Positions 5,531 through 55,910 of a DNA stretch of 64,000 nt are shown here, in pieces. The stretch comes from a plasmid, in sequence record NZ_CP110904.1; one strand, written 5' to 3'. Made by a program: the position numbers and the translations under genes. The notes below the pieces were generated by a model that was not told where the DNA came from, did not search any database, and saw nothing but the letters and a program-made list of their open reading frames with translations. Each line of letters starts with the position of its first letter. Positions within the stretch are counted from its first letter, which is position 1.

Positions 5531-5545
5531 GAAAAGTCACTTTTG
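5531..5545. promoter_or_regulatory. Variant of the dispersed palindrome (GAAAAGT-C-ACTTTTG), immediately upstream of the RBS of the 5119..5517 gene.
   Basis: Perfect 6-bp arms AAAAGT/ACTTTT with a centre C. Confidence 0.5.
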
Positions 5546-6286
5546 TGCGGTGCCCATGCGGGTCACCAGATTTTCCGGGCTCAACCAGCCGGTGAACAAC
5601 TGAGGTTTACCCGACAGCGTTACCATGGTTGGCGTACCCTGAAGCGGAATAGTTGAAGCAACCTGGAAATGCGATTTGATAATATCGAGGCAGGCCGCGT
5701 CAGGCCGTCCTTCCGGAATGATTGATATCGAGCTCATTGCGGCATCCAGCGCATCATTAGGTTTGGCCGCACACCAGATTTTTGCCATATTCCCCGCGAC
5801 CACGGAGTTCAGGCCTGCACGCGGAAAAGCGAGGAATTTTATTGAGATCCCGGCATCGAGATAGGATTGAAGATCATGATGTAGTTTCTGGCAATACCCG
5901 CAGGTTATATCAGTAAACACCGCCAGGCGATATTTTTCATTCGCCGACTTATATTCTATGGATTTTGTTTTAGCAGCAAACTCCCTGACGCCTTTCAGTA
6001 TCGCCTGCTCCGTTGTATTCTCCACATCTTTGCCGTTAACATGAAACAAGCTCCCGGTAAAAATGTAATCACCATCTTTGCTGACGTAACTCACGCCTTC
6101 TCTTGAAATCACGGTATAAATATCTTTTACTGGGGATGGTTCAATATGCTCGATGGACAGCCCAACTTCTTTTAATTTCTTCAGTGCTGCATCAGGAAGC
6201 ACGTCAGTTTTCACTGTCTGGGCATTCATGCTAAAGGCCGTACAAGATGCCAGTAATAAGAATGATGCCTTGATAGTCTTATTCAT
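5537..6286 (-). CDS. DsbC/TrbB-like periplasmic thiol:disulfide isomerase.
   Basis: Signal peptide and a CxxC motif in DITCGYCQKLH. Size and layout match DsbC-fold conjugation proteins such as F TrbB. Confidence 0.6.
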   Translation of the reverse strand: MNKTIKASFLLLASCTAFSMNAQTVKTDVLPDAALKKLKEVGLSIEHIEPSPVKDIYTVISREGVSYVSKDGDYIFTGSLFHVNGKDVENTTEQAILKGVREFAAKTKSIEYKSANEKYRLAVFTDITCGYCQKLHHDLQSYLDAGISIKFLAFPRAGLNSVVAGNMAKIWCAAKPNDALDAAMSSISIIPEGRPDAACLDIIKSHFQVASTIPLQGTPTMVTLSGKPQLFTGWLSPENLVTRMGTAQK

Positions 6287-6391
6287 TTCAGCTCCTTTAA
6301 TGGAGCATTAATACTATCATGCGAAAAAATCCTCCAAATTCGCTTAAGGGACAAAATTCCCTCCCTATAGTAAAAATTTTTAGCCCGCGAT

Positions 6392-6949
6392 GTGGGAGAA
6401 TATCCAGTATGTAATTCCAGTGGAGATTATCTCGTGTTTATACCACCAGCAGATGATGTGAAACCTATTCCCGTTCCTGTTGAAGTCTACACACAGTGCA
6501 TTACCGATGCCTCCCGCTTTTTCGGGATTGATGCAGAATTGGTCTTTACGCTTTTTGATAATGAAGGCGGAAAAGTGGGAACGTTCAGCCGGAATAAAAA
6601 TGGCACTTATGATATTGGACCTATGCAGATCAATTCGTCCAATCTGCCGGAAATACGTGGCCACTTTCCGTCTGTTACCTGGCGGGTATTGGCCTATGAC
6701 GCCTGTGCCAGTTTCTGGGTAGGTACCTGGTGGCTTTACCGGAAAATTGTAGACCGAAATGGTAATGTATTTGAAGGGATTGCCGATTACAACAGCAAAA
6801 CCCCTAAGGTCCGGGCGAGGTATATCTTTAACTTCATGGTCAAATACAATCGCCGGATTCAGGGCCGGAATGGCATGGACGAGTTATATCAATGGACGCA
6901 ACCAAAGACCCAGTACAACGGACATATTGTAAAAAATGTTCCGGAGTAA
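6392..6949 (+). CDS. Lytic transglycosylase (Slt domain; conjugative TrbN/orf169-like). The true start may be the internal GTG near 6433.
   Basis: Slt-family motifs in AELVFTLFDNEGG and YDIGPMQINS. Confidence 0.6.
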   Translation: MGEYPVCNSSGDYLVFIPPADDVKPIPVPVEVYTQCITDASRFFGIDAELVFTLFDNEGGKVGTFSRNKNGTYDIGPMQINSSNLPEIRGHFPSVTWRVLAYDACASFWVGTWWLYRKIVDRNGNVFEGIADYNSKTPKVRARYIFNFMVKYNRRIQGRNGMDELYQWTQPKTQYNGHIVKNVPE

Positions 6950-7048
6950 ATTACCCCCCTACTCTCCAATTTATTGTTTAGTTGTTTTACGTGGCTGTGA
7001 ACAATTCATCACTGAGCGAGTGAAACTGTCCCGTGAAAGAGGTTAGGT

Positions 7049-7615
7049 ATGCTCCAATCAATATACGAATTCCTGTGCAAGATACGCTGTTCTCCACAGA
7101 AGCTTAGAAATAAAGACTTGGACGGGATCTTGCCTCAGGATGAATCAACAGCTGGCTTATGGGGACCTCTGCCATTAATCCATATTGTTCTTTTCCTGGA
7201 TTTTGATGGTGTAATCCACAAATGTCAGAATGAATCTTTCGAACGGATGTATTTGATTGAGAAGTTACTTGATGCAAGTCCTTCAATGTTCATCGTTATA
7301 TCAAGCTCATGGAGAGAATGCGGGAGTATTACCTACCTAAAGTCACTTTTCCGCTCGCCGTACAGAGACCGGGTAATTGGCGCAACCCCATCCCTGTGTC
7401 TACCCTCGGGGGGAATAGGGGTACGTGCAGCTGAATGTGAAGAATTCGTGGCCAGGCACCAGGTAAAAGCCTTTATCTGCCTTGATGACGATACGACCCT
7501 GTTTCCGCCAGAATATCCGCACCTGATCCGTACGGATTATTACACGGGGGTTAAAGAAAAGGACATAACGGATCTGATAGCCAGATATAACCTACTGATG
7601 GCCCGTTTTTATTAA
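7049..7615 (+). CDS. HAD-superfamily-like hydrolase, hypothetical.
   Basis: HAD motif I-like LFLDFDGVIH and an acidic FICLDDD near the C-terminus. Confidence 0.3.
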   Translation: MLQSIYEFLCKIRCSPQKLRNKDLDGILPQDESTAGLWGPLPLIHIVLFLDFDGVIHKCQNESFERMYLIEKLLDASPSMFIVISSSWRECGSITYLKSLFRSPYRDRVIGATPSLCLPSGGIGVRAAECEEFVARHQVKAFICLDDDTTLFPPEYPHLIRTDYYTGVKEKDITDLIARYNLLMARFY

Positions 7616-7630
7616 AAAAGTAACTTTTCC
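7615..7630. promoter_or_regulatory. Dispersed palindrome copy AAAAAGTAACTTTTCC.
   Basis: Exact core AAAGTAACTTT. Intergenic. Confidence 0.6.
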
Positions 7631-7692: not shown

Positions 7693-7709
7693 GAAAAGTA
7701 ACTTTTTCC
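7693..7709. promoter_or_regulatory. Dispersed palindrome copy GAAAAGTAACTTTTTCC.
   Basis: Exact core. 80 bp from the previous copy. Confidence 0.6.
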
Positions 7710-7974: not shown

Positions 7975-7986
7975 CAGTATTCACTC

Positions 7987-11984: not shown

Positions 11985-13400
11985 TCAGTTACCTGTGCCA
12001 CGAAGACTTTCCATGAACGCCTTCCTCTTTAATCGGCGATCATCCCATGCTGAAATGACATCAGAGCTGTTACCTACCTGGCTACGGGTGAGCTCGTAAG
12101 CTGCTTTTACCTGATTGCTAAGGTTTTCAGATAACCGAGTCAGGTCCTGCCGCCGTCCGGAAAGTGATTCACTGGGGATATTCATAGCGCTGATCTTTGC
12201 TTCAACTTGCCGAAGCATGTTAATGACAAGGCTGGTGGCCGCTATTGCACTGATATCCTGGATATAGGCATAGCCTTCAGGGACATCAAAAGTCTGAAGA
12301 GAATCAAGAATTGTTGGGATGCCGATATAAGAAATAATGCGTAATTCATCATCAGAGATCCTGACATCGCTGATTGCCTTTGTTTGAACCTGAATTAGGA
12401 GGTCTGAAATCGTATCCTTCAGTCCTTTGAAACCACCATCCATCACTTCAGACATAACCAGGCATTGCGACTTTCTCGCTGAAGCAGGATCGGGTACAGG
12501 CGAACATTTGAGCATTTTTATGGAGCCACCAGCCGGAGGACCCATGATGAAATCCGATACCGTCATCGTCGATGGACGAACTTCCATCCCCGCTTTTTCA
12601 CCTTTAGCATCCCAGTTGATAATCACAGTGCCGACAAGCGACATCAACTGCTCTGCGAGTTTGTAGCCAGATAATTCAGTAACGCCACCGATATTCATAG
12701 AACCTTTATCGATGTCCATAAATGACATATAGAAAAGGTTTCCACTGAATTTTTCAGCAAACTCTTCAGGGTCTTTTGCTTTTACCTGGGAGGTCACAGT
12801 TTCTGGCGACTTGGTCATTGATGAACCGAAATCAGACAACAATCCATTAAGAGTACCAAGCATTGAAGCTGGGCCGGAACTGACCGCATTCGCATACTGG
12901 CTGGGTGGTCCAACATTTTCAGAAAGAAACGAGTAAGTAGCGTTGCAGGAATCTTTGGCAAATTTGTTCAACGCCTGCAATTTGTTCTGGATATCATTAA
13001 TAGTCGCAGCACAGTCAGCACAGATTGCCGATACCGCGACATTAAATGCATAAATCGCGGCCCCCTGCGCGATACCGCGAGCAACCTGCACCAACTGATC
13101 TCCGTTAATCATACTGAATGAACCGAGGAAAACATCGATGCCGTTACAGCCGACGGAAGCTTTGGGGAAAGACATTGAAACTAAATTGGTATTCACGTTT
13201 GTTGTGCGGTAGGAAAAAGAGCCGCCAACCACACCGGTACGGGTGGCCGTTTCAAAACTGGCCGGGCTGGTTGTCGTCATCATTCCATTAAAAATATTAC
13301 GCATGGCGTTATCGGCACCGGCATTTGGTGCAATCATCGCCGTGCAAACGGCTAACGACAAAAGTAACTTTTTTGCACAAACATGGAGGTTAGCGCGCAT
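11985..13400 (-). CDS. traH: F-type pilus assembly protein TraH/TrhH-like.
   Basis: Signal peptide MRANLHVCAKKLLLSLAVCTAMIAPNAGA. The size is about 470 aa. It lies between a TraF-like and a TraG-like gene. Confidence 0.55.
   Translation of the reverse strand: MRANLHVCAKKLLLSLAVCTAMIAPNAGADNAMRNIFNGMMTTTSPASFETATRTGVVGGSFSYRTTNVNTNLVSMSFPKASVGCNGIDVFLGSFSMINGDQLVQVARGIAQGAAIYAFNVAVSAICADCAATINDIQNKLQALNKFAKDSCNATYSFLSENVGPPSQYANAVSSGPASMLGTLNGLLSDFGSSMTKSPETVTSQVKAKDPEEFAEKFSGNLFYMSFMDIDKGSMNIGGVTELSGYKLAEQLMSLVGTVIINWDAKGEKAGMEVRPSTMTVSDFIMGPPAGGSIKMLKCSPVPDPASARKSQCLVMSEVMDGGFKGLKDTISDLLIQVQTKAISDVRISDDELRIISYIGIPTILDSLQTFDVPEGYAYIQDISAIAATSLVINMLRQVEAKISAMNIPSESLSGRRQDLTRLSENLSNQVKAAYELTRSQVGNSSDVISAWDDRRLKRKAFMESLRGTGN
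13359..13375. promoter_or_regulatory. Dispersed palindrome copy, inside the 5' end of the TraH-like gene.
   Basis: CAAAAGTAACTTTTTTG. Confidence 0.5.
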
Positions 13401-14436
13401 ATGGGCCTCCTAAACTGCCACCAACATTCAAGTAGTTCACAGGGTCCGCTGTAGGCATATCGTACCCTTCCAACTTCTGGTCCATTATTCGTTGCAATAA
13501 GAACGGGTCAGATTCCATTTCTGATTTATTCACTGTAATTACGCCATCCTCACCAATGGTATATTGGCGCTTAATATCTAACGTGGATTGGAATGAGGCA
13601 TCATCAATCAGGTTCATGCCCTTTGCAGCCAGAATAATAGTATTCTTGAGCTCCTCAGCAGTGATCATACCTTCGCTAATTCGTTGCGCTGATGACCCGT
13701 CTTTCGACACAAGGAAAATAGTTGGCACTTCGCGGATTTTGAATTGATCAATAATCTGCGCATTAGGGACAGAGAAATCCTGGAACAACCCATTTTGTAA
13801 TGGTCTGCCATCCATGCTGACAGGGAGAATGTCGACCGAATAGTAATTCTGCATAAACTGGAGGATTTGACTTTCTTCGTGGCAGAACTCACAGGTACTC
13901 TGGAAAAAGAAAAAGAGCCCGGATCTTGTGAAAATATCTTTCATTACCGTCTGCTGGTTTTTTTCCACAACCGTACGATGTGCATCCAAGGCAACCTTCT
14001 CAACCGGCTGTCTTCGTTTTTCAGACATCATTGGATTTTTAAGAAAATAATCTTTCGACTTATCCGAAAATCGCGTACCGATATCCAACATTAAACGTTG
14101 CGCTGTATAAAACCTCGATAAGTTTTCAGGGGTCGGATTATCCATTGCCTGAGTCAAAAGCCGGGGCATATTGTCCTTTAGCCACTTTGAATTAAGATCA
14201 ATCTTTTCTTCTTGTACTGGCTGGGACGAAGATGCAACAGGAGGCGTAGTCTCATTAATTTCTTCCTCAGTTTTCCGGGCTGGGTCGTCATACCAGAAAA
14301 AACCTTTCTTAAAGGCTTGTCCTGACACAAATGGGGTGTCTTTGATAAGGGTCTGGTCTTCATTTGCATGGACGCCAGTTATAAACAAAGACATCAGCAC
14401 TAACATCTTTGAAGGCAGTAACGTTAATCGAGTCAT
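13390..14436 (-). CDS. traF: Thioredoxin-fold conjugal pilus assembly protein TraF/TrhF-like.
   Basis: Signal peptide. A C-terminal thioredoxin-like region carries CEFCHEE (CxxC). It overlaps the start of the TraH-like gene. Confidence 0.5.
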   Translation of the reverse strand: MTRLTLLPSKMLVLMSLFITGVHANEDQTLIKDTPFVSGQAFKKGFFWYDDPARKTEEEINETTPPVASSSQPVQEEKIDLNSKWLKDNMPRLLTQAMDNPTPENLSRFYTAQRLMLDIGTRFSDKSKDYFLKNPMMSEKRRQPVEKVALDAHRTVVEKNQQTVMKDIFTRSGLFFFFQSTCEFCHEESQILQFMQNYYSVDILPVSMDGRPLQNGLFQDFSVPNAQIIDQFKIREVPTIFLVSKDGSSAQRISEGMITAEELKNTIILAAKGMNLIDDASFQSTLDIKRQYTIGEDGVITVNKSEMESDPFLLQRIMDQKLEGYDMPTADPVNYLNVGGSLGGPYAR

Positions 14437-15569: not shown

Positions 15570-16367
15570 TTAATCCTTCAAGAGCACTTTATTTGCCAAA
15601 GAGTTGAACACATCCTGACGGTGGCATGTAAACATAGTGTCGTAACGCAATAGTTCCATTAAGTCGTCACTAACTTTACCCAAACGAATGTCGGCAGATA
15701 ATTCGTATGCCCAGGCAAACACCTTAGATTTTAATGTTGCACTATCATCCCCCAACCCCGGTGTAAAGGCAATTATTCGTGGGAATAGAACGACATCGTT
15801 AATTGCTTTGAGTGATGACACACCAACATCTTTTATTGCATCTACGGTAGCAGGCTTTAATCCAAAAAATATACTGACAAACTCAGGTGCAAGCATTGAC
15901 ATAAAGAAGATCTGCATAAAATAATCATTTTGTATGTCTACACACTTGGAGCGTAACTGCTGAATTTTGCTCGGATTATAACAATCTTCCTGCCCATTCA
16001 ACAAAGTAACTTTTTCCCCTGCATTGTAAATGCCGAAGTCAGTATCGTCACTGTCATATTCACGGATAACGTTAGTGTCACCATCAACAACGGCCATAAA
16101 AAATTTATCCCACGAGATCTCTTTACCTAAAGAACGTGGAACGAGGAAACTTCCGGGACGTGTTTCAACTTCGAATGCATTATCAGCCATTGCCCCAAAC
16201 CCGGTTCCAAATAGACGGCGTTGCAGGAGTGGAGACCCTGTTTGATACATAGAAGATCCGTGAATAGGCAATAACATTAGGAATGCACGGTAACTACGAA
16301 TAATCGAAATCTCGGTACGTAATAGTTTACCGAGTAGGTTACGCGTTATGTTATCTGATTCTGACAT
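15570..16367 (-). CDS. Hypothetical protein. It may be a transfer regulator.
   Basis: 265-aa ORF with codon structure. An operator motif lies about 75 bp upstream and another is internal. Confidence 0.3.
   Translation of the reverse strand: MSESDNITRNLLGKLLRTEISIIRSYRAFLMLLPIHGSSMYQTGSPLLQRRLFGTGFGAMADNAFEVETRPGSFLVPRSLGKEISWDKFFMAVVDGDTNVIREYDSDDTDFGIYNAGEKVTLLNGQEDCYNPSKIQQLRSKCVDIQNDYFMQIFFMSMLAPEFVSIFFGLKPATVDAIKDVGVSSLKAINDVVLFPRIIAFTPGLGDDSATLKSKVFAWAYELSADIRLGKVSDDLMELLRYDTMFTCHRQDVFNSLANKVLLKD
16001..16018. promoter_or_regulatory. Dispersed palindrome copy, intragenic.
   Basis: ACAAAGTAACTTTTTCCC. Confidence 0.5.
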
Positions 16368-16440: not shown

Positions 16441-16456
16441 GAAAAGTAACTTTTGG
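16441..16456. promoter_or_regulatory. Dispersed palindrome copy about 75 bp upstream of the 15570..16367 gene.
   Basis: GAAAAGTAACTTTTGG. Confidence 0.6.
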
Positions 16457-16920: not shown

Positions 16921-16942
16921 GCAGAAAAAGTTACTTTTCTGC
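16921..16942. promoter_or_regulatory. Extended palindrome GCAGAAAAAGTTACTTTTCTGC about 190 bp upstream of the transfer operon.
   Basis: 10-bp arms. Sits between the four tandem palindromes and the first gene of the operon. Confidence 0.65.
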
Positions 16943-21374: not shown

Positions 21375-23458
21375 TGGCAAAATCAAAAAGGACCAACCTG
21401 CACGCCCAGGAAAACTTTTACAGGCCGATATTGGAGTACAGAAGTGCCTCAGTACTTTTAATTTGCGCCATAATAATGCTGTTTATGGGGTTTCGATCAG
21501 ATGGGTTGAATATTGCCCCCATCATTTTGTATACCGCTGCCTTCATGCTTTTGGTTTGTTTGTACCGCTGTAAAACGGCATACCCTTATTTGATGGCGCA
21601 CTGGCGCGTGTTTCAGCGCCAGATTATGTTTATTAGCCTTAAATCGCTCAGGTCGATCAACAAAAGTAACTTTTTCTCTAACGAGCGAAAGTACCGCCAG
21701 CTGGTACAAGAGTATAAAAAATCCAACCGTCAGGTACCGGACAGAAAAACCTACTTCTGTAACGGCTTTGAATGGGGTCCCGAGCATGCAGATCGCGCGT
21801 ATCAAATTGCCAATCTCTCAAGCGATAAAAGAGAGATAGCCCTGCCATTTGCCCTAAACCCCATAGCGCGGCATTTTGAGGCGATGGCCAGATCCATGGG
21901 TGGCAGTAACGCCATTTTTGCTGTTGATAAACGGGCGCCAATTTTTGTTACCGAAGATAACTGGTTCGGCCATACCCTCATTACCGGAAACGTCGGTACC
22001 GGTAAAACAGTCCTTCAGCGGTTATTGAGCATCAGTATGCTGCATTTAGGCCACGTCATTGTGGTTATTGATCCAAAGAACGACGCAGATTGGCGGCAGT
22101 CACTTATGGATGAAGCGGCGGAACTTGGGTTGCCATTTTATAAGTTTCACCCTGCCCAGCCTTCTTCTTCAGTGTGTATTGATGTCTGCAACGCTTATAC
22201 CAATGTTTCGGACCTCACCTCACGCCTTCTTAGTCTGGTTTCGGTTCCCGGGGAAGTTAACCCATTCGTACAATATGCCGAGGCTCTCGTTTCAACTGTG
22301 ATCACCGGTCTGTCTTACACGGATAAAAAACCGTCGATATATCTCATTCATAAAAACATGAAAAGCCACATGGCAATCCTGAACCTCACCGTAAAAGTTC
22401 TGGAATGCTGTTATGCACGGCACTACGGGCCCGATGTATGGATGGAAAAGGTGAAATATTCTTCGAATGATACTCTACAAGTCCGCTTTAAGCGCCTTGT
22501 TGAATGGTTTTCTGCCCACTTCTTGAATTATGAAGGTGCCGAGCCCATTGATTGGATTGATACCGTCGGCCGGTTAGTAGATTATTCTTTGTCTGATCCT
22601 GAGCACATGTCAAAAATGACAGCGGGTATTATGCCGCTGTTCAGTCGTCTGACCGAACAACCACTGAATGAATTGCTTTCGCCGTCACCTAATTCACTCA
22701 CTTCGCGTGAAATAGTCACTTCAGATGGAATATTCAGTACCGGAGGTGTTCTCTATATCTCGCTCGATGGTCTTTCCAACCCGGAATCCGCCCGGGCTAT
22801 TTCGCAGTTGATAATGTCAGACCTGACGTCCTGCGCGGGTAGTCGCTATAACTCTGATGATGGTGATATGTCCTCACATTCAAGGATCAGTATTTTCGTC
22901 GACGAAGCACACTCCGCAATCAACAATTCAATGATAAACTTACTCGCTCAGGGTCGTGCCGCACAAATTGCATTGTTTATTTGCACGCAAACCATTTCCG
23001 ATTTTATTGCAGCAGCAAACGTTGAGACTGCAAATCGTATTACGGGTCTGTGTAACAATTACATTAGCCTGCGGGTAAACGACACCCCAACGCAAACGCT
23101 GGTTGTAGAAAACTTTGGTAAAAGTCCAATTAGTACAAATATGGTCACGTATACGACAGGATCAGAAACCACTTTGCCGCATAATAACTTCTCTGGTTCG
23201 ATATCAGAAAGAAAGCAAACAACGCTGGAAGAAAGTATTCCGAAAGAGCTTTTAGGCCAGGTTCCAAAATTTCATATTGTGGCCAGACTTCAGGATGGTC
23301 GTAAAGTCGTCGGGCAGATCCCGATTGCCGTAAGTGAAAACTCGATGAGACCCAATACAACATTATTGGAGATGTTCCTGAAACCAGCCGGAAAAGTAAC
23401 TTTGCGTCAGAATGTGGGTTTAGACTATTTAAATAAACATCTAAGGAAATTGCATTGA
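21374..23458 (+). CDS. traD: Type IV coupling protein (TraD/TraG-like ATPase).
   Basis: N-terminal TM segments, Walker A GNVGTGKTV and Walker B IFVDEAHS. It follows the relaxase gene. Confidence 0.7.
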   Translation: MAKSKRTNLHAQENFYRPILEYRSASVLLICAIIMLFMGFRSDGLNIAPIILYTAAFMLLVCLYRCKTAYPYLMAHWRVFQRQIMFISLKSLRSINKSNFFSNERKYRQLVQEYKKSNRQVPDRKTYFCNGFEWGPEHADRAYQIANLSSDKREIALPFALNPIARHFEAMARSMGGSNAIFAVDKRAPIFVTEDNWFGHTLITGNVGTGKTVLQRLLSISMLHLGHVIVVIDPKNDADWRQSLMDEAAELGLPFYKFHPAQPSSSVCIDVCNAYTNVSDLTSRLLSLVSVPGEVNPFVQYAEALVSTVITGLSYTDKKPSIYLIHKNMKSHMAILNLTVKVLECCYARHYGPDVWMEKVKYSSNDTLQVRFKRLVEWFSAHFLNYEGAEPIDWIDTVGRLVDYSLSDPEHMSKMTAGIMPLFSRLTEQPLNELLSPSPNSLTSREIVTSDGIFSTGGVLYISLDGLSNPESARAISQLIMSDLTSCAGSRYNSDDGDMSSHSRISIFVDEAHSAINNSMINLLAQGRAAQIALFICTQTISDFIAAANVETANRITGLCNNYISLRVNDTPTQTLVVENFGKSPISTNMVTYTTGSETTLPHNNFSGSISERKQTTLEESIPKELLGQVPKFHIVARLQDGRKVVGQIPIAVSENSMRPNTTLLEMFLKPAGKVTLRQNVGLDYLNKHLRKLH
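21661..21678. promoter_or_regulatory. Dispersed palindrome copy, intragenic in the coupling-protein gene.
   Basis: CAAAAGTAACTTTTTCTC. Confidence 0.5.
23389..23407. promoter_or_regulatory. Dispersed palindrome copy about 50 bp upstream of the 23455 gene.
   Basis: CCGGAAAAGTAACTTTGCG. Confidence 0.55.
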
Positions 23459-28088: not shown

Positions 28089-28107
28089 CAGAAAAGGTAC
28101 TTTTCTG
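28089..28107. promoter_or_regulatory. Variant palindrome CAGAAAAG-GTA-CTTTTCTG in an intergenic region.
   Basis: Perfect 8-bp arms. The flanks match the copy at 16921. Confidence 0.5.
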
Positions 28108-32009: not shown

Positions 32010-32291
32010 TTACTGCAAACGAGCGTAAGAATTCAGTTGCAGCTCTGCGTCCGCCTGCTGTTGCAGCACGTCCATCACCCGGCTGAGCATGGTCAGCGCC
32101 TGGGAGGGGGAGCCGCCAAAAGTCACTTTAATTTCGTTGGTGGTGTGGTGCTGCTCCAGATCGAGAATATTCACTTCCACGTCTTCGCCCTTCTCATCCT
32201 TCGCCGTACACTGAATGCTGACCCGGGTCACAGGGTCCTTAACTGTCTGCAATGGTGCCTTCGTGCTGACGTTGATCGCGATATTCTTCAT
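32010..32291 (-). CDS. Small hypothetical protein (probable start at MKNIAINV).
   Basis: ORF downstream of the parB-like gene on the same strand. Confidence 0.3.
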   Translation of the reverse strand: MKNIAINVSTKAPLQTVKDPVTRVSIQCTAKDEKGEDVEVNILDLEQHHTTNEIKVTFGGSPSQALTMLSRVMDVLQQQADAELQLNSYARLQ

Positions 32292-32355: not shown

Positions 32356-33563
32356 TCATGCCTGGCCCTGTTGCTGCTTTTCGGCATGCTTACGCAGGTA
32401 CTGCGTGAGATTGCCGTGGGCTTCACAGATGGCATTCATCTCATCATTGGTCAGCACTAAGGTGTACGTATCGTCGCTGAGGTTCTTAGCGGCACGTTGT
32501 TCTGCTTCTTCCGCAATACGCGAAAAAAGCGGGATTGCCGTGTCCGCAATCGTCGTCACGGTCTTTTTGTTGAGTACGCTGGAGACCGATACAGTTTTAG
32601 GCTCTGGCGTTTTGATCGGATCTTTCGCCTTCGGCTCCGGGGTGTTTTCCGGAGTTGGCTCCGGGTTGGTCCCAACATTCCCGTCCACCAGCTGCGGCGG
32701 GGTGGTCTCATCCGTAGTACCTTCGACGGATGTTTGTTCCGTCACGGTGGTTTCAGGGGTGTTTGCGTTCGTTTCCTGCACGACCGGCGCTTTCGGCTGC
32801 ATGGCTGCATCAATTTTGCCAGCTTTGACGAATTTAAGGGTTTTGGCCGTCGCCTTGCCATAGACGTCGATGGCTTTGGTGATATTATTCACGGCCTTAT
32901 CGCCGCTGTAGAGATATTCATCCAGCGCGACATACATGCTCACTTCCCCTGTCACCAGCATAACCTGGAGGGCTTCAGGCAGGTCCAGGACGCGAACCAT
33001 CTGACGCAGGTGCTGTTCTGTTTTACCGCGACGCTTGGCCAGTTCTGCGAACGTTTTAGGTTCTTCAGCATCTTCGACCATCCGTTTGATGGAGAGCGCC
33101 TCAGCCACGACAGACAGAGCCAGATTAGAGTTACCGTCCAGCGTAAACTGTTCGGCACTGGCGCGGCTACCGCGAAACTCCTCGCAGCGAATTAACGAAA
33201 TCAGTTCACGCCCTTCCTCTGCCAGCTCGATGTTTGCCATAGCGGCGGCGCGGATACGACATGCCCCCTGACGCAGAACAGGACGACCATTCAGAACCTG
33301 CACGACGATAGCTGGTACGCTTAAAGGCTCAGACTTATAGGACTCTTTAAGACTGTTCAGGTGGGCTACCACGTGGGGTAAGGAGTAGTAGCTTTCTCCC
33401 ATGCCAGCGGTACGGGTGTTAAAACCTTCTTCCTCTTCGACCACTGCCGGGTTGATGACCAGACCATTGCTTTTGCGTGCGCCGTTACCGGAACGCTCCA
33501 GGTAAGTGCGCAGGCTGATATCGTTGTTAGCGGTTTTTACATCATTTTCGATAGTGGACATTG
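32356..33563 (-). CDS. parB: ParB/KorB-like partition or regulatory protein (start placed at MSTIEND after the RBS aaggaagg).
   Basis: ParB-box-like LRQGACRIRAAAMA (GxRRxRA-type). A central HTH-like region. The C-terminus is Pro/Thr/Glu-rich. Three palindromic operator copies cluster within 350 bp upstream. Confidence 0.45.
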
Positions 33564-33650: not shown

Positions 33651-33677
33651 CGAAAAAAAAAGTAACTTTTTTTCCCG
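33651..33677. promoter_or_regulatory. Dispersed palindrome copy (site 1 of 3 upstream of parB-like).
   Basis: CGAAAAAAAAAGTAACTTTTTTTCCCG. Confidence 0.6.
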
Positions 33678-33772: not shown

Positions 33773-33790
33773 CGAAAAGTTACTTTTCCG
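33773..33790. promoter_or_regulatory. Dispersed palindrome copy (site 2 of 3).
   Basis: CGAAAAGTTACTTTTCCG, a near-perfect 18-bp palindrome. Confidence 0.65.
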
Positions 33791-33890: not shown

Positions 33891-33906
33891 CTAAAGTTAC
33901 TTTTCC
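33891..33906. promoter_or_regulatory. Dispersed palindrome copy (site 3 of 3).
   Basis: CTAAAGTTACTTTTCC. Confidence 0.6.
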
Positions 33907-35460: not shown

Positions 35461-35480
35461 GCGAAAAGTTACTTTCCCGG
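35461..35480. promoter_or_regulatory. Dispersed palindrome copy between small regulator-like genes.
   Basis: GCGAAAAGTTACTTTCCCGG. Confidence 0.6.
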
Positions 35481-45732: not shown

Positions 45733-46011
45733 TCAGTTTGAGAATACGTTAACGCTGTAGCGTCTACCGAGCACCTCGGCAGTGGTATCCACAATTTTCT
45801 GAATATCATCGGTAATCGCGGGTTTACTGAATGCGACAGTATGCAGTTCGCCAGCTTGTTCCGCCGTCGCGCCATCATGAAAGCGGCTGGCATCGTACAG
45901 CTGGACCCGGAGCGTCCGGGTGTGATCAACATGGGGCAATGTTCTTCTCCTGTTCAGCCAGTCGCCATAAGCGTTAATAATCACTTTCTTCCGGTTGCGG
46001 CTGAGTGACAA
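45733..46011 (-). CDS. Hypothetical protein.
   Basis: 92-aa ORF whose start overlaps the upstream 74-aa gene. Confidence 0.25.
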   Translation of the reverse strand: MSLSRNRKKVIINAYGDWLNRRRTLPHVDHTRTLRVQLYDASRFHDGATAEQAGELHTVAFSKPAITDDIQKIVDTTAEVLGRRYSVNVFSN

Positions 46012-46198
46012 ACTGGTACTTTACTCCATTAGGGACACCAACGGCTTTTGCTACGGATTCACACAGCAGCGACAGGTCATTCAGCGTCATCGGATATTCG
46101 ATGTCGACTGAATATAGGGCCCCGGCATTCTCGGCGTCTTCGATGTTTTTAAACTGGGCGCTGAAAATGGCGACGGTAGAAATTTCAATGTTGTGCAT
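45974..46198 (-). CDS. Conserved 74-aa hypothetical protein (paralog of 52571..52795).
   Basis: Shares ALYSV(D/E)(I/V)EYPMTLNDLSLLCESVAKA with the second copy. A terminator hairpin sits just upstream. Confidence 0.45.
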   Translation of the reverse strand: MHNIEISTVAIFSAQFKNIEDAENAGALYSVDIEYPMTLNDLSLLCESVAKAVGVPNGVKYQFVTQPQPEESDY

Positions 46199-46247
46199 GA
46201 GTCAGTCCTTATGAAAAAAAAGCCACCGAAAGGTGGCTGAGTAAAAG

Positions 46248-46451
46248 TTACTGCGCCTGGCTGGCCTTGTCCGCATTTTTGGTGTAACCAACTCGGGCAA
46301 TGACGACGGCAATTGCAAGGAGAGCAGCGAGACCGCCGTAGAATACAGATCGGGAAACATCGGCGAACATATCGCTCAAGTTATCAACGCCGAGGAGAAA
46401 TACACAGATAATGACGATAAAGCGAACTGGTTTGCTATAAAACAATTTCAT
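46248..46451 (-). CDS. Small membrane protein.
   Basis: Two hydrophobic segments. Followed by the hairpin gccaccgaaaggtggc plus a T-run. Confidence 0.35.
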   Translation of the reverse strand: MKLFYSKPVRFIVIICVFLLGVDNLSDMFADVSRSVFYGGLAALLAIAVVIARVGYTKNADKASQAQ

Positions 46452-46643
46452 CAGTAGCTATCCTTCTGGGGTGAAATGACAACAGCATTACACCACATCA
46501 GATACCGTTTTTTTTTCGCTAACGGGCCTATTTTGACCAGAAAAAAATAGCGCCTCAGGGTTGGCAATGGCGAGGTTCTTTTCGAGGTACCTGTGGTCAT
46601 CCCGTCCTGATATCAGAGAGAAAAACGGTTCCAATTGAAAAAT

Positions 46644-46937
46644 TTAGTCGCGTTCGATGGACCTCAGGAGATCACTCCCAGTGGCGCTCAGCTTGACCTG
46701 ATAATAACTTCCCGGTAAAGGCCGCTGGGACGGATTAACCAGCTCAACCAACCCAAGCCGAAAGAGGACCGGGGTGCTACGGCATCGCACATCATCCGAT
46801 GCCCCCCTATACATCCGGCATTCCCGGGCCCGACGAAATTCACCGCAGATCTCATACTTCGTTCCGCTTGCCAGACGATGCAACACATAGATTTGGGCCT
46901 GTGTAAGCGGGGAAATAGGTCGCTTTGTGTCAGCCAT
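46644..46937 (-). CDS. Hypothetical protein.
   Basis: 97-aa ORF. Confidence 0.25.
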   Translation of the reverse strand: MADTKRPISPLTQAQIYVLHRLASGTKYEICGEFRRARECRMYRGASDDVRCRSTPVLFRLGLVELVNPSQRPLPGSYYQVKLSATGSDLLRSIERD

Positions 46938-47020
46938 AATACTCCTTTTAAGGTGGGTCTGTTCGGCTGGCTGAAAGATCAGGGACAGACCATGTTAGAC
47001 CGATACAGCCTGTGACTCGT

Positions 47021-48026: not shown

Positions 48027-48407
48027 CTACTGCTGCTTCTGGAACGCGACGAACGTCGCGAAAACAGCTATCAACACTGCCATGAAGTAAACCAGGTATG
48101 AGCCGGATTGCCAGATATTTACGCCGAAAAAAGAAAGTAACTTTCCGTCCGGGATAATAGAAAAAGCCAGGTTCCATAATCCGGTCAGTACAACCTGAGC
48201 GATAATCATTTTTCCCAGCGCACCCAGTTCCTGAGTTGCATACATTGCAGCCATTACAAATGTCAGAACTACCACAAGGAGAGCAGACAAAGCCACAACC
48301 GAAATGCTCAGTCCGACGGACGTAAATATAATGGCTTCTTTAAAAGCCAGACCTGTAAACCCCCAGATCAGAATGACTAAAATGAAAAACAACAGGATAA
48401 ATTTCAT
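48027..48407 (-). CDS. Polytopic small membrane protein.
   Basis: Four hydrophobic helices in 126 aa. Confidence 0.4.
   Translation of the reverse strand: MKFILLFFILVILIWGFTGLAFKEAIIFTSVGLSISVVALSALLVVVLTFVMAAMYATQELGALGKMIIAQVVLTGLWNLAFSIIPDGKLLSFFGVNIWQSGSYLVYFMAVLIAVFATFVAFQKQQ
48131..48147. promoter_or_regulatory. Dispersed palindrome copy, intragenic.
   Basis: AGAAAGTAACTTTCCG. Confidence 0.45.
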
Positions 48408-52852: not shown

Positions 52853-53347
52853 CTATTCTTTTTTATTACTTACTGAAATCTGTTGAACAGGTTCTGACTG
52901 ATCATTTTCTCCGACCGGTGTTTTGTCGACAAATGACCATTCTTGTTTGGGTTCTTTATATAAAGCACTAGCCTCAGTATTCATCCATGATTCAAAAGCA
53001 ACATAAGTCATGCCTTCCTCACTAACGCGGGCCTTAAAAACCTCCCAAGCTTGCAGATCAAGCGGCTGGTACTCTTTCAGCGACTGGTCAAGCCATCCCT
53101 TCCAGATTTCCTTACGATGTTTAAAATGAGGTATAGCCAGGTATGCATAACTACCCGCAACACAAATTAAATACAGGAAGCCGCTCCATAGAGAGGAATT
53201 GAAAAAAATCTGACTAGGGAAAATACATGCCACTATGGCAATAATTAATAGCAGGTGTTCCTTACCAGTGGGCTTATTAAATTCCCAGTTGATTGAAATG
53301 CCCCTTATCTTCCTTAAGTTCCTTTTTTTATCCTCTTTATCGGTCAT
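52853..53347 (-). CDS. Membrane protein.
   Basis: Two TM helices. An operator palindrome lies 50 bp upstream. Confidence 0.35.
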   Translation of the reverse strand: MTDKEDKKRNLRKIRGISINWEFNKPTGKEHLLLIIAIVACIFPSQIFFNSSLWSGFLYLICVAGSYAYLAIPHFKHRKEIWKGWLDQSLKEYQPLDLQAWEVFKARVSEEGMTYVAFESWMNTEASALYKEPKQEWSFVDKTPVGENDQSEPVQQISVSNKKE

Positions 53348-53392
53348 ATATCAGTCCCTAATAGTTTTAAAATGGATGTTGTTAGTCTGATG

Positions 53393-53409
53393 AAAAAAGT
53401 TACTTTTCA
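53393..53409. promoter_or_regulatory. Dispersed palindrome copy about 50 bp upstream of the 52853..53347 gene.
   Basis: GAAAAAAGTTACTTTTC. Confidence 0.6.
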
Positions 53410-53528
53410 AACCCGCACCGTAACGGACTTCACCCCTGCGAGCATTACACCACACACATTTCATCTATTTTTCCGTTAACGGGGCTATTTTCACGCTTTT
53501 TTAGGTCTGTCTGATTGTGCTAATTGCC

Positions 53529-55910
53529 TCACGCCAGCAGGCGGACCAGACGATTCAGCAGAGGCCTTAACAGTGCCGCAGTACTCTCCCGGCAATCATC
53601 CACATGCCGGAATCCCGTCTTTTTCGAAGACTGGGGACCGGACAGCATCCTCAGCGCCCAAATAACCTCCCGTAAGGTTTCGTCGTACTCCTGGGAAATA
53701 CACCTGGCTAACGTCGTCAGAAAGCGTTTTCTGACAGCCCGGTAATACAACCGTTCCTCCGGTTGCATTGATTGAGGCTTAATCCGCAGGTTACAGAGAG
53801 TCAGTACAGCGTCGAGCAGACCGGCTTTCAGTTCGTCACCCGTCCGGGCCAGATGTTGCTGGCGTTCGTTCTCCAGTTGCGTCGTGATCCATGCCCCAAG
53901 AGGCGTTCGGTTGTGGGTGTGCAGCGCCACACAGGCCGCAACACAGCACCAGAAGCGCAGTTTCTGCCGCTGCCCCCGCAGTTTACGGGCAACGAGCAGG
54001 CGGTAATCGCAGTCGGTCAGGATCTTGAAACGGTGGCTGACGAGCAGGGACGGCAGCGGCGTCTGGTCGTTAATGCCAAGACGTGAAAAGGCCTGCCCGC
54101 GTTGAGCGAGGCGGTGGTACACCGCACCTTTCCCCCGGGAAATTCGGACGGCGCCGTATCTAAGCAGGTACTGTGCCGCCGCCACGGGGGTAAACTCACC
54201 GTCAGACACACGCTGGCGTAATCCGTCATATTCATGCCAGATAATCCAGGACGCAGTGTCTTCATCGACCGTCAGCTCATCCTCTTCTTCGAATGCAACG
54301 ATGTTCAGGCTTTCCCCGCTGCTCAGCAGGCTGCGGGAAGCACGGTCATCCTCCCGACCGTCAAAATAGGCCATTTCGGCAGACGGATCAGACAGCCCGT
54401 CAAATGACGTCCCGATACGGCCTTCCGGCAACTTCATCCAGCGTGGTGCTGGCATCGGCGTGCGGGGTACGGGTTGCATAGCTGGCTCATCGTCGAGCAG
54501 ATCCAGTGCCCCCCCTTCCCACACCTGGCGGTAAAGTTCGATGGCGCGAAATGGTCGCGGGTTAAAGCAATGCAGTGACCAGAGAAAGTCGATATGCAGC
54601 ACGTTGGCTTCCTGCACCAGTCGAAACTGCGGCTCCGCCATGCGGCGGTTATGCGCCGTATCTTCGACCTCGCCAGAAAGTAACTTTTCCCGCACCGCTG
54701 CGGCCCGCTGGGCCTCCACGTAATCGAGGCTGCAACAGATATGGAACAGTCGTTCGGTCAGGGACGACGAGAAAACATTGGGCTGAAGACGCACATACCC
54801 GCCCTCAAACACTTTGCGGCCGATATAATCCCGAAGGCTCCAGTCGTACTGGATTTTGGTCAGGAAACGCTGAAGGCGGTTTAGACCAGCCTGGTAGCCG
54901 TACTTCTCAGGATCAGTGCGGAGTAAGGTTTCCATCGAGTGGTCAATGCCGACGGCGCAGCATAGCGAGCATCCATAGCGAGCGCCGCAGGCAGAAGACC
55001 GGGCCGTGTATTTCTCCGGCGTCCAGATACATTCCCCGGTCGCGTCTTTGTAAAGCGTGGCGAGGCTGAAGTTGTCCGGCAAAAAGCTTGGCAGCGGAAA
55101 TCGCGCCAGCGAACCACAGGCCATCAGAAATGACCAGATATCCTGTGTCCGCCACTCTTTCACCGGGTACAGTTCGCCGCCGAGCTCCGTGAGCGAGACG
55201 CTGTCCGACTGCCCGCCCATTCTGAGGATGTTGCCTGCCCGACGGGCGCTCTCATCATCGCGGGAACCCAGCATCAGGCACACTTTGTTGCGGACGGAAG
55301 CTGGTGCATTTTTTAAATAACGGGCTTTGGCCTGGCGCAGTGGAGAGCGTTTGAGATCTGTAGAGCATTGACGCGTATTGGAATTTGTCCAGGTCGGAAG
55401 TCCGCGTCCGGTCAGAATGCGTCCGACCCAGCTCTGGGTCATGGACGGGTGGGCCACCAGGACGGTCACGGGCAGTTGCTGTTCGGCAATAAAGGCTCGG
55501 AGCTGGCTGAGAACCTGCGTGGACTGATGATGCATCTCAGGGTTTTCAATCTGGGTGTTGGAGATCTGAATGAAGTGGTGCTGGCTGACGTTCGACCCGT
55601 TCCGTACGGCACGGATCAGGGCCATGAGGAACAGGTGCAGTAGCGAGTGGGAGTCTTTCCCGCCGCTGTAGCCGACGCACATGGTCCAGCCTTCGGTAAT
55701 CGCATGATAAATGGCACTGGTTGCCGTCGTCACGCGCGATGCGAGACTGACCGGCTCACCGGCATCGGTATAATTCAGATCCGCATCGGTCTTCAGTGTT
55801 TGCCAGACATCGCCCCATTTATCCTGCGTCAGAATGGCAGCGTTAGCCGCCTCAGAAAATTGAATTTCTGAGGGTAATTCAAGGAATGTTTCTTTTATTT
55901 CGATATACAT
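53529..55910 (-). CDS. PP-loop ATP pyrophosphatase-fold protein (PAPS-reductase/DndC/IbrA-like N-terminal domain) with a long C-terminal extension.
   Basis: PP-loop CVGYSGGKDSHSLLHL (SGGKDS). A downstream Cys cluster SSACGARYGCSLCCAVG. 793 aa. Confidence 0.5.
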   Translation of the reverse strand: MYIEIKETFLELPSEIQFSEAANAAILTQDKWGDVWQTLKTDADLNYTDAGEPVSLASRVTTATSAIYHAITEGWTMCVGYSGGKDSHSLLHLFLMALIRAVRNGSNVSQHHFIQISNTQIENPEMHHQSTQVLSQLRAFIAEQQLPVTVLVAHPSMTQSWVGRILTGRGLPTWTNSNTRQCSTDLKRSPLRQAKARYLKNAPASVRNKVCLMLGSRDDESARRAGNILRMGGQSDSVSLTELGGELYPVKEWRTQDIWSFLMACGSLARFPLPSFLPDNFSLATLYKDATGECIWTPEKYTARSSACGARYGCSLCCAVGIDHSMETLLRTDPEKYGYQAGLNRLQRFLTKIQYDWSLRDYIGRKVFEGGYVRLQPNVFSSSLTERLFHICCSLDYVEAQRAAAVREKLLSGEVEDTAHNRRMAEPQFRLVQEANVLHIDFLWSLHCFNPRPFRAIELYRQVWEGGALDLLDDEPAMQPVPRTPMPAPRWMKLPEGRIGTSFDGLSDPSAEMAYFDGREDDRASRSLLSSGESLNIVAFEEEDELTVDEDTASWIIWHEYDGLRQRVSDGEFTPVAAAQYLLRYGAVRISRGKGAVYHRLAQRGQAFSRLGINDQTPLPSLLVSHRFKILTDCDYRLLVARKLRGQRQKLRFWCCVAACVALHTHNRTPLGAWITTQLENERQQHLARTGDELKAGLLDAVLTLCNLRIKPQSMQPEERLYYRAVRKRFLTTLARCISQEYDETLREVIWALRMLSGPQSSKKTGFRHVDDCRESTAALLRPLLNRLVRLLA
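54673..54691. promoter_or_regulatory. Dispersed palindrome copy, intragenic in the PP-loop gene.
   Basis: CCAGAAAGTAACTTTTCCC. Confidence 0.5.

Follow-up and report, generated by a model that had tools for sequence, protein, structure and literature searches.

The window, a 64,000-nt stretch of plasmid record NZ_CP110904.1, belongs to an IncHI-family plasmid; it is ~100% identical to pP10159-4 and closely related to R27. Gene contexts were taken from the annotation of the near-identical pP10159-4 and agree with those given by a first-pass annotation, which had also reported a recurrent palindrome across the transfer, regulatory and other backbone genes listed in Table 1. The core of this palindrome, AAAGTWACTTT, has 15 exact matches in the window, against a mean of 0.02 and a maximum of 1 in 100 dinucleotide-preserving shuffles, and the form with a C/G centre, AAAGTSACTTT, has four (0.04 expected). 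Together with one copy that carries a single core mismatch, the window therefore contains at least 20 sites. The earlier minimum of 17 copies holds, including two close variants, one with centre C (5531-5545, GAAAAGTCACTTTTG) and one with a core mismatch (28091-28105, GAAAAGGTACTTTTC), but three copies with a C/G centre (4630, 7339, 32119) had been missed.

Table 1. Copies of the palindrome in the window and the gene of the candidate binder.
Feature	Position	Strand	Context
Site CAAAGTGACTTTT, centre G	4629..4641		Spacer of convergent genes 3992-4603(+) and 4662-5084(-)
Site AAAAGTCACTTTT, centre C	5532..5544		Between stop of 5537-6286(-) and start of 5119-5517(-)
Site TAAAGTCACTTTT, C/G centre	7338..7350		Within HAD-domain gene 7049-7615
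Perfect 13-mer	7616..7628		Right after HAD gene stop, convergent spacer before TraG-N (trhG) gene; conserved island versus R27
Perfect 13-mer	7694..7706		HAD/trhG convergent spacer; centre A in window, T in R27; flanks divergent
Perfect 13-mer	13360..13372		5' end of trhH, overlap with upstream thioredoxin-family gene; kept in IncHI1 and IncHI2
Site CAAAGTAACTTTT	16002..16014		Within trhR (15570-16367); IncHI2 keeps a copy with centre C
Perfect 13-mer	16442..16454		~80 bp upstream of trhR ATG
Perfect 13-mer	16926..16938		~190 bp upstream of mobI, ~70 bp from presumed oriT repeats; conserved island, A/T centre swapped in IncHI2
Perfect 13-mer	21662..21674		Within coupling-protein gene (21374-23458), codons K-S-N-F-F; synonymous positions kept in IncHI1 and IncHI2
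Site AAAAGTAACTTTG	23392..23404		3' end of coupling-protein gene, ~55 bp before next gene; conserved, GTA/GTT synonymous swap at centre
One-mismatch variant AAAAGGTACTTTT	28092..28104		Intergenic, ~165 bp upstream of 27614-27928(-); exact copy at corresponding IncHI1 place
Site AAAAGTCACTTTA, C/G centre	32118..32130		Within small gene just downstream of orphan parB-like gene
Orphan ParB-family protein, 401 aa, candidate binder	32356..33561	-	Orthologue of R27 R0104
Proximal candidate operator	33658..33670		~100 bp upstream of orphan parB-like ATG
Second candidate operator	33775..33787		117 bp from first; within the window's only perfect 15-mer
Third candidate operator	33892..33904		117 bp upstream of second
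Site AAAAGTTACTTTC	35464..35476		Between RHH-like small gene (35129-35440) and DUF5417 gene
Site GAAAGTAACTTTC	48133..48145		Within 48027-48407(-)
Perfect 13-mer	53395..53407		~50 bp upstream of 52853-53347(-), downstream of PAPS-reductase-family gene; same-place copies in IncHI1 and IncHI2
Site GAAAGTAACTTTT	54676..54688		Within PAPS-reductase-family gene; IncHI1 has a copy, IncHI2 copy decayed

The lengths first proposed, palindromes of 15-18 bp and a 19-bp consensus, are too long: the window has a single perfect 15-mer (33774-33788) and nine perfect 13-mers, and the outer positions are mostly at background. Among the 46 sites of R27, position ±6 is A/T in ~74% of half-sites and position ±7 is G/C in just ~51%. 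Beyond ±7 base composition is mostly at background level, as is complementarity at distances 8 (9/46) and 10 (4/46); at distance 9 it is slightly higher (17/46). The actual site is a-AAAGT-w-ACTTT-t, spanning 13-15 bp rather than 19. In its 13-bp form, aAAAGT(A/T)ACTTTt, it occurs ~45 times on the conserved backbone in each of the IncHI resistance plasmid lineages examined. A literature search found no published description of the motif, in line with the earlier remark that no such regulon was known.

The first-pass annotation proposed a count over the complete replicon, which found 49 copies in pP10159-4 and 46 in R27 (~0.25 expected); the plasmid excess over Markov or shuffle expectation is ~1000-fold. 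On pP10159-4 the motif is the sole over-represented palindrome, the runner-up having 5-7 copies. R27 carries 46 exact and 25 one-mismatch copies (8.9 expected), making the motif near-invariant, which is the pattern of parS or OB sites and not that of a degenerate transcription-factor regulon. No copy was found in 100 kb of the E. coli K-12 chromosome or in 28 kb of O157 flanks.

On the whole plasmids, with 46-49 copies each, every copy lies in backbone DNA, on pP10159-4 within 198.6 kb; the 30-kb resistance region has none, and resistance or transposon inserts yielded no copies. The widest site-to-site gaps in R27 match Tn10 and the tcu insert, and backbone gaps are ≤ ~7 kb except at accessory inserts and the par1-trhC segment. 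Sites are present upstream of many transfer operons but are found far outside the transfer region too, at rep, ter, Ig-like and methylase genes. In R27, 22 of the 46 sites are intergenic although non-coding DNA makes up 20% (p=3e-5); ~50% of copies are intragenic or between convergent genes. Several conserved copies lie deep inside genes or between convergent genes, which counts against an operator-circuit explanation. A further point against it is the lack of enrichment of sigma-70-like promoter matches near sites (1 vs 6.0 expected in R27, 5 vs 6.5 in pP10159-4).

Over-representation of the motif was found in IncHI1 (14 per 41 kb), in IncHI2 (12) and in an IncHI3-like plasmid (18), and at 5-7 copies per 21 kb also in three divergent contigs; many copies occupy orthologous positions across lineages, synonymous codon positions included. 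In IncHI2 alignments, identity is 95% in motif columns vs 77% in flanks (p=7e-6). Synonymous positions are preserved at both sites within the coupling-protein gene, though gene-wide third-position identity is just 42%, and intergenic sites form conserved islands with A/T centre swaps. The motif itself is invariant between lineages; its flanks are unrelated from copy to copy, and around the mobI-upstream copy the palindrome extends into the flanks, whose sequence varies with the lineage. The palindrome is, as had been claimed, a selected, reiterated and backbone-specific site, retained in each IncHI lineage tested.

In all lineages an orphan parB-like gene, which heads a leftward operon of small genes, has copies of the motif upstream: three here, two in IncHI1, two in IncHI2, six in the IncHI3-like plasmid and one or two in the divergent contigs. 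In the six lineages alignable there, ~95-105 bp separate the proximal copy from the ATG. A -10-like element found in the different lineages (TACTAT, 33688-33683) lies ~12 nt upstream of this copy, which would cover positions ~+6 to +18. The DNA between the three copies at 33658-33904 shows no repetition. Before trhR, a candidate -10 (TAAAAT, 16463-16458) lies 3 nt upstream of the site at 16442, so that the site covers the predicted transcription start.

The encoded protein comprises a ParB/Srx-like N-domain, a ParB-type helix-turn-helix (HTH), a disordered linker and a helical C-terminal domain, and matches Pfam HTH_ParB and TIGR00180. Its AF2 model (pLDDT 71.6) has RK2 KorB (8qa9, E=1.6e-7) as the top Foldseek match, with ParB and Noc next. 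In the recognition helix, H184 and R186 do not vary in relatives down to 37% identity, in keeping with the invariant motif. Box II of the N-domain reads GACR in place of GERR and Box III GN in place of EN; these departures from CTP-binding and hydrolysis motifs make a KorB-like clamp mechanism uncertain. Inspection of the sequence revealed neither a ParA partner nor a ParA-binding LG(R/K)GL motif. The protein does not belong to the KorB family, and no KorB-specific Pfam domains were detected. In R27, expression of R0104 is strong and constitutive, with microarray signals of 2196 (25 °C) and 2155 (37 °C) in the PMC7366339 supplement. ParAB and ParMR partition systems are encoded separately on the plasmid, and the canonical Par1 ParA/ParB uses a different centromere, made up of nine 54-bp repeats. 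R27 deletions Del7, which removes R0104 and its sites, and Del1, which removes both paralogues, are viable and stable in E. coli (PMC4853401). R0104 is therefore not an essential centromere protein, and the system is dispensable for maintenance under laboratory conditions.

We consider it moderately probable that the palindrome is the specific DNA site of this orphan ParB-family protein, in a circuit resembling KorB-OB and VirB-virS. The circuit is best read as a KorB/VirB-like global DNA-binding system separate from ParAB and ParMR. A dimer would read the 13-15-bp site via the HTH, and the one to six copies before its own gene, the proximal one just downstream of the -10-like element, would mediate autoregulation. 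Other copies, over or 50-300 bp upstream of transfer operons (trhR, mobI/oriT, htdT, trhF) and likewise at replication (repB) and leading-region-type operons, would let the protein coordinate backbone gene expression, by repression or by anti-silencing; it may also slide along DNA in an NTP-dependent manner. The ~50% of intragenic or convergent copies could be extra loading or anchoring sites that provide plasmid-wide coverage. The interpretation of the first-pass annotation is supported in part. Its KorB/ParB analogy is sound: the odd-centred, scattered 13-bp palindrome, the orphan parB with its upstream copies and the KorB match to the model agree with it. The protein is neither a KorB family member nor linked to ParA, and half of the sites are intragenic or between convergent genes.

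It is possible, though rather unlikely, that the palindrome is a real operator bound by another plasmid protein and that the orphan parB-like gene is merely its most heavily regulated target. Candidates are the paralogues R0042 of R27 and the 40890-41966 gene, which bring the ParB-like proteins on one plasmid to three, TrhR/TrhY, HtdA or an unrecognised small HTH/RHH protein. R0042 is the highest expressed paralogue (very high), rises further when conditions promote transfer or htdA is mutated, and has a conserved one-mismatch variant ~85-95 bp upstream in R27 and pP10159-4; the sites before many transfer operons would also fit. However, only the R0104-type gene has a cluster of perfect sites in every lineage, and the recognition helices of both paralogues, one of which weakly matches the Noc model, differ from that of R0104. 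TrhR, TrhY and HtdA have no DNA-binding domain in Pfam or NCBIfam, the earlier nomination of RHH-like proteins and TrhR/TrhY as binders found no specific support, and the spread of sites beyond transfer genes speaks against this explanation.

More doubtful is a mainly architectural role of the sites and the orphan ParB, with gene regulation secondary: an auxiliary centromere, a compaction, positioning or establishment system, or a coat that counters H-NS/Hha silencing. Fairly even backbone coverage, conservation of intragenic and convergent-spacer copies, parS-like invariance and the lack of enrichment of promoter-like matches near sites are consistent with such a role. IncHI plasmids, which are under H-NS control, carry genes for Hha and an H-NS homologue (PMC7366339), and VirB and Noc show that orphan ParBs can act in such ways (PMC10770331, PMC12704722). 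Yet R27 is not destabilised by loss of R0104 and its sites, the DNA at sites is not unusually AT-rich (GC 0.452 vs 0.456), and the protein has neither ParA partner nor LG(R/K)GL motif; a regulatory component is favoured by intergenic enrichment and by the operator-like position of sites at two promoters.

That no dedicated plasmid protein is involved, the motif being a host-factor site, a hairpin/terminator signal, a small mobile repeat or a compositional artefact, is very improbable: the 11-mer is AT-rich and turns up within unrelated repeats of other phyla as well, and the mobI-upstream flanks are palindromic, but the motif is absent from the chromosomal DNA scanned and in vast excess on the plasmid, its unrelated flanks show that it is not a mobile repeat, symmetry generally ends at ±7, a 5-6-bp A/T stem with a 1-3-nt loop forms no stable hairpin, and synonymous positions are kept.

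Among known systems, KorB/OB of IncP-1 RK2/RP4 shares a 13-bp palindrome with a single central base (OB TTTAGC-S-GCTAAA, IncHI AAAAGT-W-ACTTTT) and many near-identical backbone copies, about one per 4-5 kb, some at promoters and others distant or intragenic. KorB is also an autoregulating ParB-fold binder with an HTH and a C-terminal dimerisation domain, and the top structural match of the IncHI candidate. In contrast to the orphan IncHI protein, KorB is encoded together with KorA and the ParA protein IncC and serves as partition ParB as well; there are 12 OB sites rather than ~45, the IncHI protein lacks detected KorB-specific Pfam domains and the canonical GERR of ParB-family CTPases, and R27 tolerates loss of its gene (PMC4853401). 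The KorB-like ParB of IncC (A/C) plasmids, a related MOBH/MPF_F lineage, binds 14 scattered 22-bp parS sites, as shown by EMSA (PMC10954446). These palindromes lie over the conserved backbone, mostly intergenic, with few in ORFs and one at the protein's own promoter (PMC10954446), and an IncC ParB-like protein is the nearest non-IncHI relative of the orphan N-domain and HTH (~31% identity). The IncC site differs, however (AAAC-TTTCACATGTGAAA-GTTT; no copy of AAAGTNACTTT was found in the 5.6-kb IncC segment examined), and its binder, the ParB of the parAB-053 partition operon, is needed for stability. VirB of the Shigella virulence plasmid is likewise ParB-like and an orphan, its large enterobacterial plasmid being silenced by H-NS and equipped with separate partition systems, and it controls transcription from inverted-repeat sites (virS) that may be far from promoters; yet it is an anti-silencer with few targets and of P1-type ParB origin, whereas the ~45 IncHI sites have no AT-rich bias and VirB is not among the structural matches. 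Although Noc of Bacillus subtilis is chromosomal, with membrane-tethering and cell-division functions, and no sign of an amphipathic membrane helix or of a role of that kind was seen for the IncHI protein, Noc too is an orphan ParB paralogue with dozens of near-perfect palindromes (NBS) scattered over its replicon, and it ranks among the top structural matches of the IncHI candidate.

The window contains 15 exact copies of the 11-mer AAAGTWACTTT (W, A or T), each at the position given in the first-pass annotation; shuffled sequences have a mean of 0.02 copies and a maximum of one. Both close variants named there are present as well, and three copies with C or G at the centre had been overlooked: AAAGTSACTTT (S, C or G) matches four times against 0.04 expected. 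Together, the W-centred copies, the variants and the additional C/G-centred copies bring the window total to at least 20 sites. The longer consensus proposed initially proved too long, with nine window copies being perfect 13-mers and a single one a perfect 15-mer. Among the 46 sites of the IncHI1 plasmid R27, position ±6 is A or T in ~74% of half-sites and ±7 is G or C in ~51%; beyond ±7, symmetry and composition are approximately at background. Symmetry thus ends at ±7, which rules out an extended hairpin, and the site is written here as GAAAAGTTACTTTTC.

The window is 99.8–100% identical to large MOBH/MPF_F conjugative plasmids of Citrobacter, Klebsiella, Enterobacter and E. coli, the best match being pP10159-4 (NZ_MF072964.1, 228.7 kb), typed as IncHI1B by MOB-suite. 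Its backbone is ~90% identical to IncHI1 (R27-type) DNA, and its coupling-protein gene is ~73% identical to that of IncHI2. It covers Tra1 (trhF/H/G, trhR/trhY, presumed oriT, mobI, MobH relaxase, coupling protein) together with the last portion of the ter region; beyond these runs a long series of small genes that includes toxin-antitoxin systems, methylases and one gene of the PAPS-reductase family.

For whole-plasmid counts, pP10159-4 and R27 were pieced together from stretches of at most 50 kb. They carry 49 and 46 copies of AAAGTNACTTT (44 and 42 of them W-centred), where first-order Markov resampling predicts ~0.2–0.25 per plasmid; on pP10159-4, other palindromes of comparable form reach seven copies at most. 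Sites are located in Tra1 and Tra2, beside both RepHI replicons, and in the ter module, Ig-like protein genes and methylase genes. The 30-kb resistance region of pP10159-4 has none, and the largest inter-site gaps in R27 coincide with Tn10, the tcu insert and the par1–trhC segment. Almost half of the R27 copies (22/46) are intergenic, compared with 20% non-coding DNA (binomial p=3e-5), and intergenic copies usually lie 50–300 bp upstream of a gene start. One-mismatch copies number 25 in R27, with 8.9 expected by chance; the excess of exact over one-mismatch copies argues for a high-specificity site of the parS/OB type and not for a degenerate regulon.

We are nearly certain that the motif has been selected as a binding site for a protein. 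The 11-mer is over-represented in 41 kb each of IncHI1 (14 copies), IncHI2 (12) and an IncHI3/pNDM-MAR-like Klebsiella plasmid (18), and three divergent contigs from Yersinia, Leclercia and related hosts have 5–7 copies in each 21 kb. Many sites are orthologous among the window, IncHI1 and IncHI2, and in BLAST alignments to IncHI2 across sites the motif columns are 95% identical versus 77% for the flanks (Fisher p=7e-6). Within the coupling-protein gene, the K-S-N-F-F and G-K-V-T-L codons retain their synonymous positions against a gene-wide third-position identity of 42%; the sole change at these sites, GTA to GTT, exchanges the permitted centre base. Intergenic sites are conserved islands amid diverged sequence, again with A/T swaps at the centre. 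On the IncHI3-like plasmid many site positions differ and site density is higher, and therefore sites turn over under selection for the motif itself.

One gene is consistently associated with the site. In each lineage, one to six copies lie immediately upstream of an orphan parB-like gene, the proximal one ~95–105 bp from the ATG in the six lineages alignable in this region; in most of these six, a -10-like element (TA..AT) is found ~12 nt further upstream. The RefSeq start at 33633 (425 aa) is not conserved, and homologues as well as an RBS kept in all lineages favour the shorter product. A conserved leader precedes this start, and an IS903/IS5-type transposase insertion, absent from the otherwise identical pP10159-4, sits within the leftward operon led by the gene and could be polar on the small genes downstream. 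The protein matches Pfam HTH_ParB and scores below the curated cut-off of TIGR00180. An AlphaFold2 model built on 18 homologues (mean pLDDT 71.6; folded domains mostly 75–95) predicts a ParB/Srx-type N-domain, an HTH domain and a helical C-terminal domain, with a disordered linker at 254–328. RK2 KorB (8qa9, E=1.6e-7) heads the Foldseek matches of the model, ahead of chromosomal ParBs and Noc. Full-length homologues form a narrow family: only eight representatives among 1.84 billion reach E<=1e-30, those named are all from Enterobacterales, and the sole more distant full-length match, a phage ParB, has unrelated surroundings. Across lineages the motif stays the same even where the protein is only 37% identical; H184 and R186 of the predicted recognition helix are invariant in this IncHI3-like homologue too, in line with the unchanged motif. 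Box II, canonically GERR, is an invariant G-A-C-R, and Box III is G-N in place of EN. The G-x-C-R form of Box II is common to a wider set of ParB-like representatives (proteins P0082–P0224), most frequently as GHCR (46 of ~120 long representatives); we found no discussion of such a subfamily in the literature.

Coordinates and arrangement of the sites and associated features
Feature	Replicon	Position	Strand	Remarks
Orphan parB-like gene	window	32356-33561	minus	401 aa from conserved start
Leader of orphan gene	window	33561-33657		~95 nt
Sites upstream of orphan gene	window			3, spaced exactly 117 bp
Sites upstream of orphan gene	IncHI1			2, 118 bp apart
Sites upstream of orphan gene	IncHI2			2, 126 bp apart
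Sites upstream of orphan gene	IncHI3-like plasmid			6, within 750 bp
Orthologous sites	window, IncHI1, IncHI2			two in coupling-protein gene; upstream of trhR and mobI; 5' end of trhH; downstream of PAPS-reductase gene
Overlooked C/G-centre copies	window	4630; 7339; 32119		
Site pair between convergent genes	window	7616; 7694		
IS903/IS5-type insertion	window	30809-31777		~30.8-31.8 kb
Tandem units, presumed oriT	window	16694-16857		four units of ~43 bp, trhR-mobI interval
Paralogue genes	R27	45191-46348; 40890-41966		R0042, beside dam; second gene, beside repHI1A
Paralogue genes	pP10159-4	222718-223872; 227094-228167		
Direct repeats upstream of parA	pP10159-4	13480-13958		nine of ~54 bp
RepHI iterons	R27	38388-40482		~43 bp, both sides of repB
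RepHI iterons	pP10159-4	939-2059		~43 bp, both sides of repB
Palindromes in ter island	E. coli O157:H7 chromosome (L142)	20200; 24792		

Gene association and modelled fold point to the orphan protein as the probable binder. In R27 its orthologue R0104 is strongly expressed, with microarray signals of 2196 at 25 °C and 2155 at 37 °C and of 5624 when htdA is mutated; one of two paralogues encoded elsewhere on the plasmid, R0042, is expressed above R0104, ranks among the highest of the R27 genes, and goes up under transfer-promoting conditions (PMC7366339 and supplement). That another plasmid protein binds the palindrome is unlikely, though of the alternatives we take this one most seriously. Both paralogues share the N-domain signature and a G-(A/H)-C-R Box II, their recognition helices differ from that of the orphan protein, and a conserved one-mismatch variant of the palindrome lies ~85–95 bp upstream of R0042. 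A second scattered motif for the paralogues was not found; the recurrent word AAATGCTTT was rejected as such because it is part of the RepHI iterons. These iterons (CATTCATGCAAATGCTTTTC...AAAGGCAC) have ends (AAAGGCACTTT / AAAGTGCCTTT) that look like a one-mismatch half of the palindrome and explain some of the one-mismatch matches.

A role in partition was also considered. ParA/ParB and ParM are encoded away from the orphan gene, and the direct repeats upstream of parA (CCCCTTAATCGCCAGC...), unrelated in sequence to the palindrome, presumably serve Par1 ParA/ParB as its centromere, so that the palindrome was rejected for this function. Departing from canonical ParABS, no parA adjoins the orphan gene, the protein sequence has no LG(R/K)GL ParA-binding motif, and R27 Del7 (90,001-96,150), which removes R0104 and its upstream sites, is viable and stable in E. 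coli; the same is true of Del1 (40,355-46,955), from which both paralogues are missing (PMC4853401). These deletions show that the system is no essential centromere and that the protein can be lost without lethal effect.

At two promoters the sites look like candidates for classical repression. A candidate trhR promoter (TTAAGA-16-TAAAAT) has its last base 3 nt ahead of a palindrome, which places the predicted transcription start within the site, in a layout largely kept in IncHI1 and IncHI2; at the orphan gene itself, the proximal site is predicted at approximately +6 to +18. Promoter overlap as a general rule was rejected at the level of consensus scans: sigma-70-like matches within -80 to +40 of sites are not enriched (R27, 1 versus 6.0 expected; pP10159-4, 5 versus 6.5). 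Placement looks operator-like only at trhR and the own promoter. The likeness to KorB/ParB-type global regulation suggested in the first pass is supported by the scattered backbone operator and a ParB-fold protein with KorB as top match. The sites could instead serve mainly an architectural, establishment or anti-silencing role, which we judge slightly less likely than binding by another plasmid protein. Conserved copies also occur between convergent genes and within long genes; local GC at the sites equals the plasmid average (0.452 against 0.456), with no compositional sign of an AT-rich or H-NS bias near them. In the presumed oriT, each tandem unit is an inverted repeat ACATAGGGTCACTT-N6-8-AAAAGTGACCCTATG, conserved in IncHI1, IncHI2 and this plasmid, whose arms contain AAAAGTGAC, the left half of the C/G-centre variant, back to back.

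Recognition by a host factor, or a site with no dedicated protein, is highly improbable; two 50-kb pieces of the E. coli K-12 chromosome have no copies, in answer to the concern that the motif might be a generic chromosomal word, and there are none in the 28 kb flanking the ter island of O157:H7. Tus/Ter, a methyltransferase target and a mobile repeat were ruled out because the site is symmetric, its length exceeds that of a methyltransferase target, and its flanks are unrelated. The O157:H7 tellurite-resistance island keeps both palindromes known from the ter module on the plasmid, with A changed to T at the centre of one, consistent with an IncHI origin; being 94–98% identical to the plasmid, it is too recent to show site decay. 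A collection scan for two sites 96–126 bp apart returned mostly unrelated tandem repeats with the 11-mer, from other phyla, and IncHI2-type loci, and is uninformative on chromosomal frequency. Contigs L127, L054, L083, L122 and others in the genome_contigs scan have the 11-mer within unrelated tandem or dispersed repeats from other phyla; in L127 (59% GC) the flanks of the five copies are unrelated, and these copies might be an independent operator system.

We give somewhat better than an even chance to a model in which the orphan ParB-family protein uses the palindrome as its operator or loading site, the two forming a KorB/VirB-like global circuit on IncHI backbones. The circuit would be autoregulated and would reach transfer regulators, the oriT region, replicons and leading-region-type operons. 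A bolder version, which we consider doubtful, is a partition-independent, plasmid-wide 'coat': the orphan ParB-fold protein, from a little-studied subfamily with a G-x-C-R Box II, would load at ~45 evenly spread, near-invariant sites, and the resulting plasmid-specific chromatin would set the expression state of the whole backbone. Such chromatin might oppose or cooperate with H-NS/Hha in thermosensitive transfer, or keep the plasmid silent when it first enters a new host, with the two paralogues supplying separate additional layers.

IncHI plasmids (R27/pHCM1; R478 and mcr-1 IncHI2; pNDM-MAR types) rank among the main vehicles of multidrug resistance in Salmonella Typhi, E. coli, Klebsiella and Enterobacter. 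To our knowledge, described IncHI regulation (H-NS/Hha, HtdA, TrhR/TrhY) is limited to transfer operons. A near-invariant operator present ~45 times per IncHI backbone, including the trhR and rep regions and beside the presumed oriT, points to an undescribed global control layer, for which our analysis supplies a concrete candidate regulator–site pair. None of the papers searched has the motif string or an IncHI ParB-like regulator, although an early passing mention is possible. The palindrome also provides a sequence signature for IncHI backbone DNA and IncHI-derived islands such as the O157 ter island.

Reviews of the ParB-CTPase fold (including PMC12704722) describe KorB, VirB, Noc, BisD, PadC and HerB as repurposed members, and orphan ParBs as frequent on mobile elements and mostly uncharacterised; the IncHI protein would be a further natural case of such repurposing. 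The nearest described precedent is in the related IncC plasmids, where a KorB-like ParB binds 14 scattered 22-bp parS sites (PMC10954446). However, the IncC parS differs in sequence (TTTCACATGTGAAA with AAAC/GTTT flanks), the IncC relative of the IncHI orphan is ~31% identical to it in the N-domain and HTH only, and the IncHI palindrome was not found in the IncC segment examined. The modelled fold and the HTH_ParB match liken the orphan protein to KorB, and a 13-bp, odd-centred palindromic operator in many near-identical backbone copies is present, as for OB. A PDB profile search retrieved KorB at E=0.44 only, and the protein belongs to no KorB-specific family, HTH_ParB and sub-threshold TIGR00180 alone being found. 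KorB loads as a CTP-dependent clamp at OB and represses over long range. The GACR and GN boxes of the IncHI protein differ from GERR and EN of CTP-clamp ParBs and leave clamp behaviour hypothetical; nucleotide specificity of ParB-like proteins is not readable from sequence (PMC12704722). KorB belongs to a central control operon with ParA (IncC) and KorA and doubles as a partition ParB, whereas the IncHI gene lacks these. KorB loss is lethal, unlike loss of the IncHI protein, which is tolerated. VirB is likewise an orphan ParB-like protein on a plasmid with independent partition systems; its virS sites lie in or beside AT-rich, H-NS-silenced promoter regions, where VirB relieves silencing. The proposed system works like KorB–OB, yet outside a ParA/KorA operon context and without KorB-specific domains; like VirB the protein is an orphan, like KorB or IncC ParB it has many scattered sites, and its Box II is divergent.
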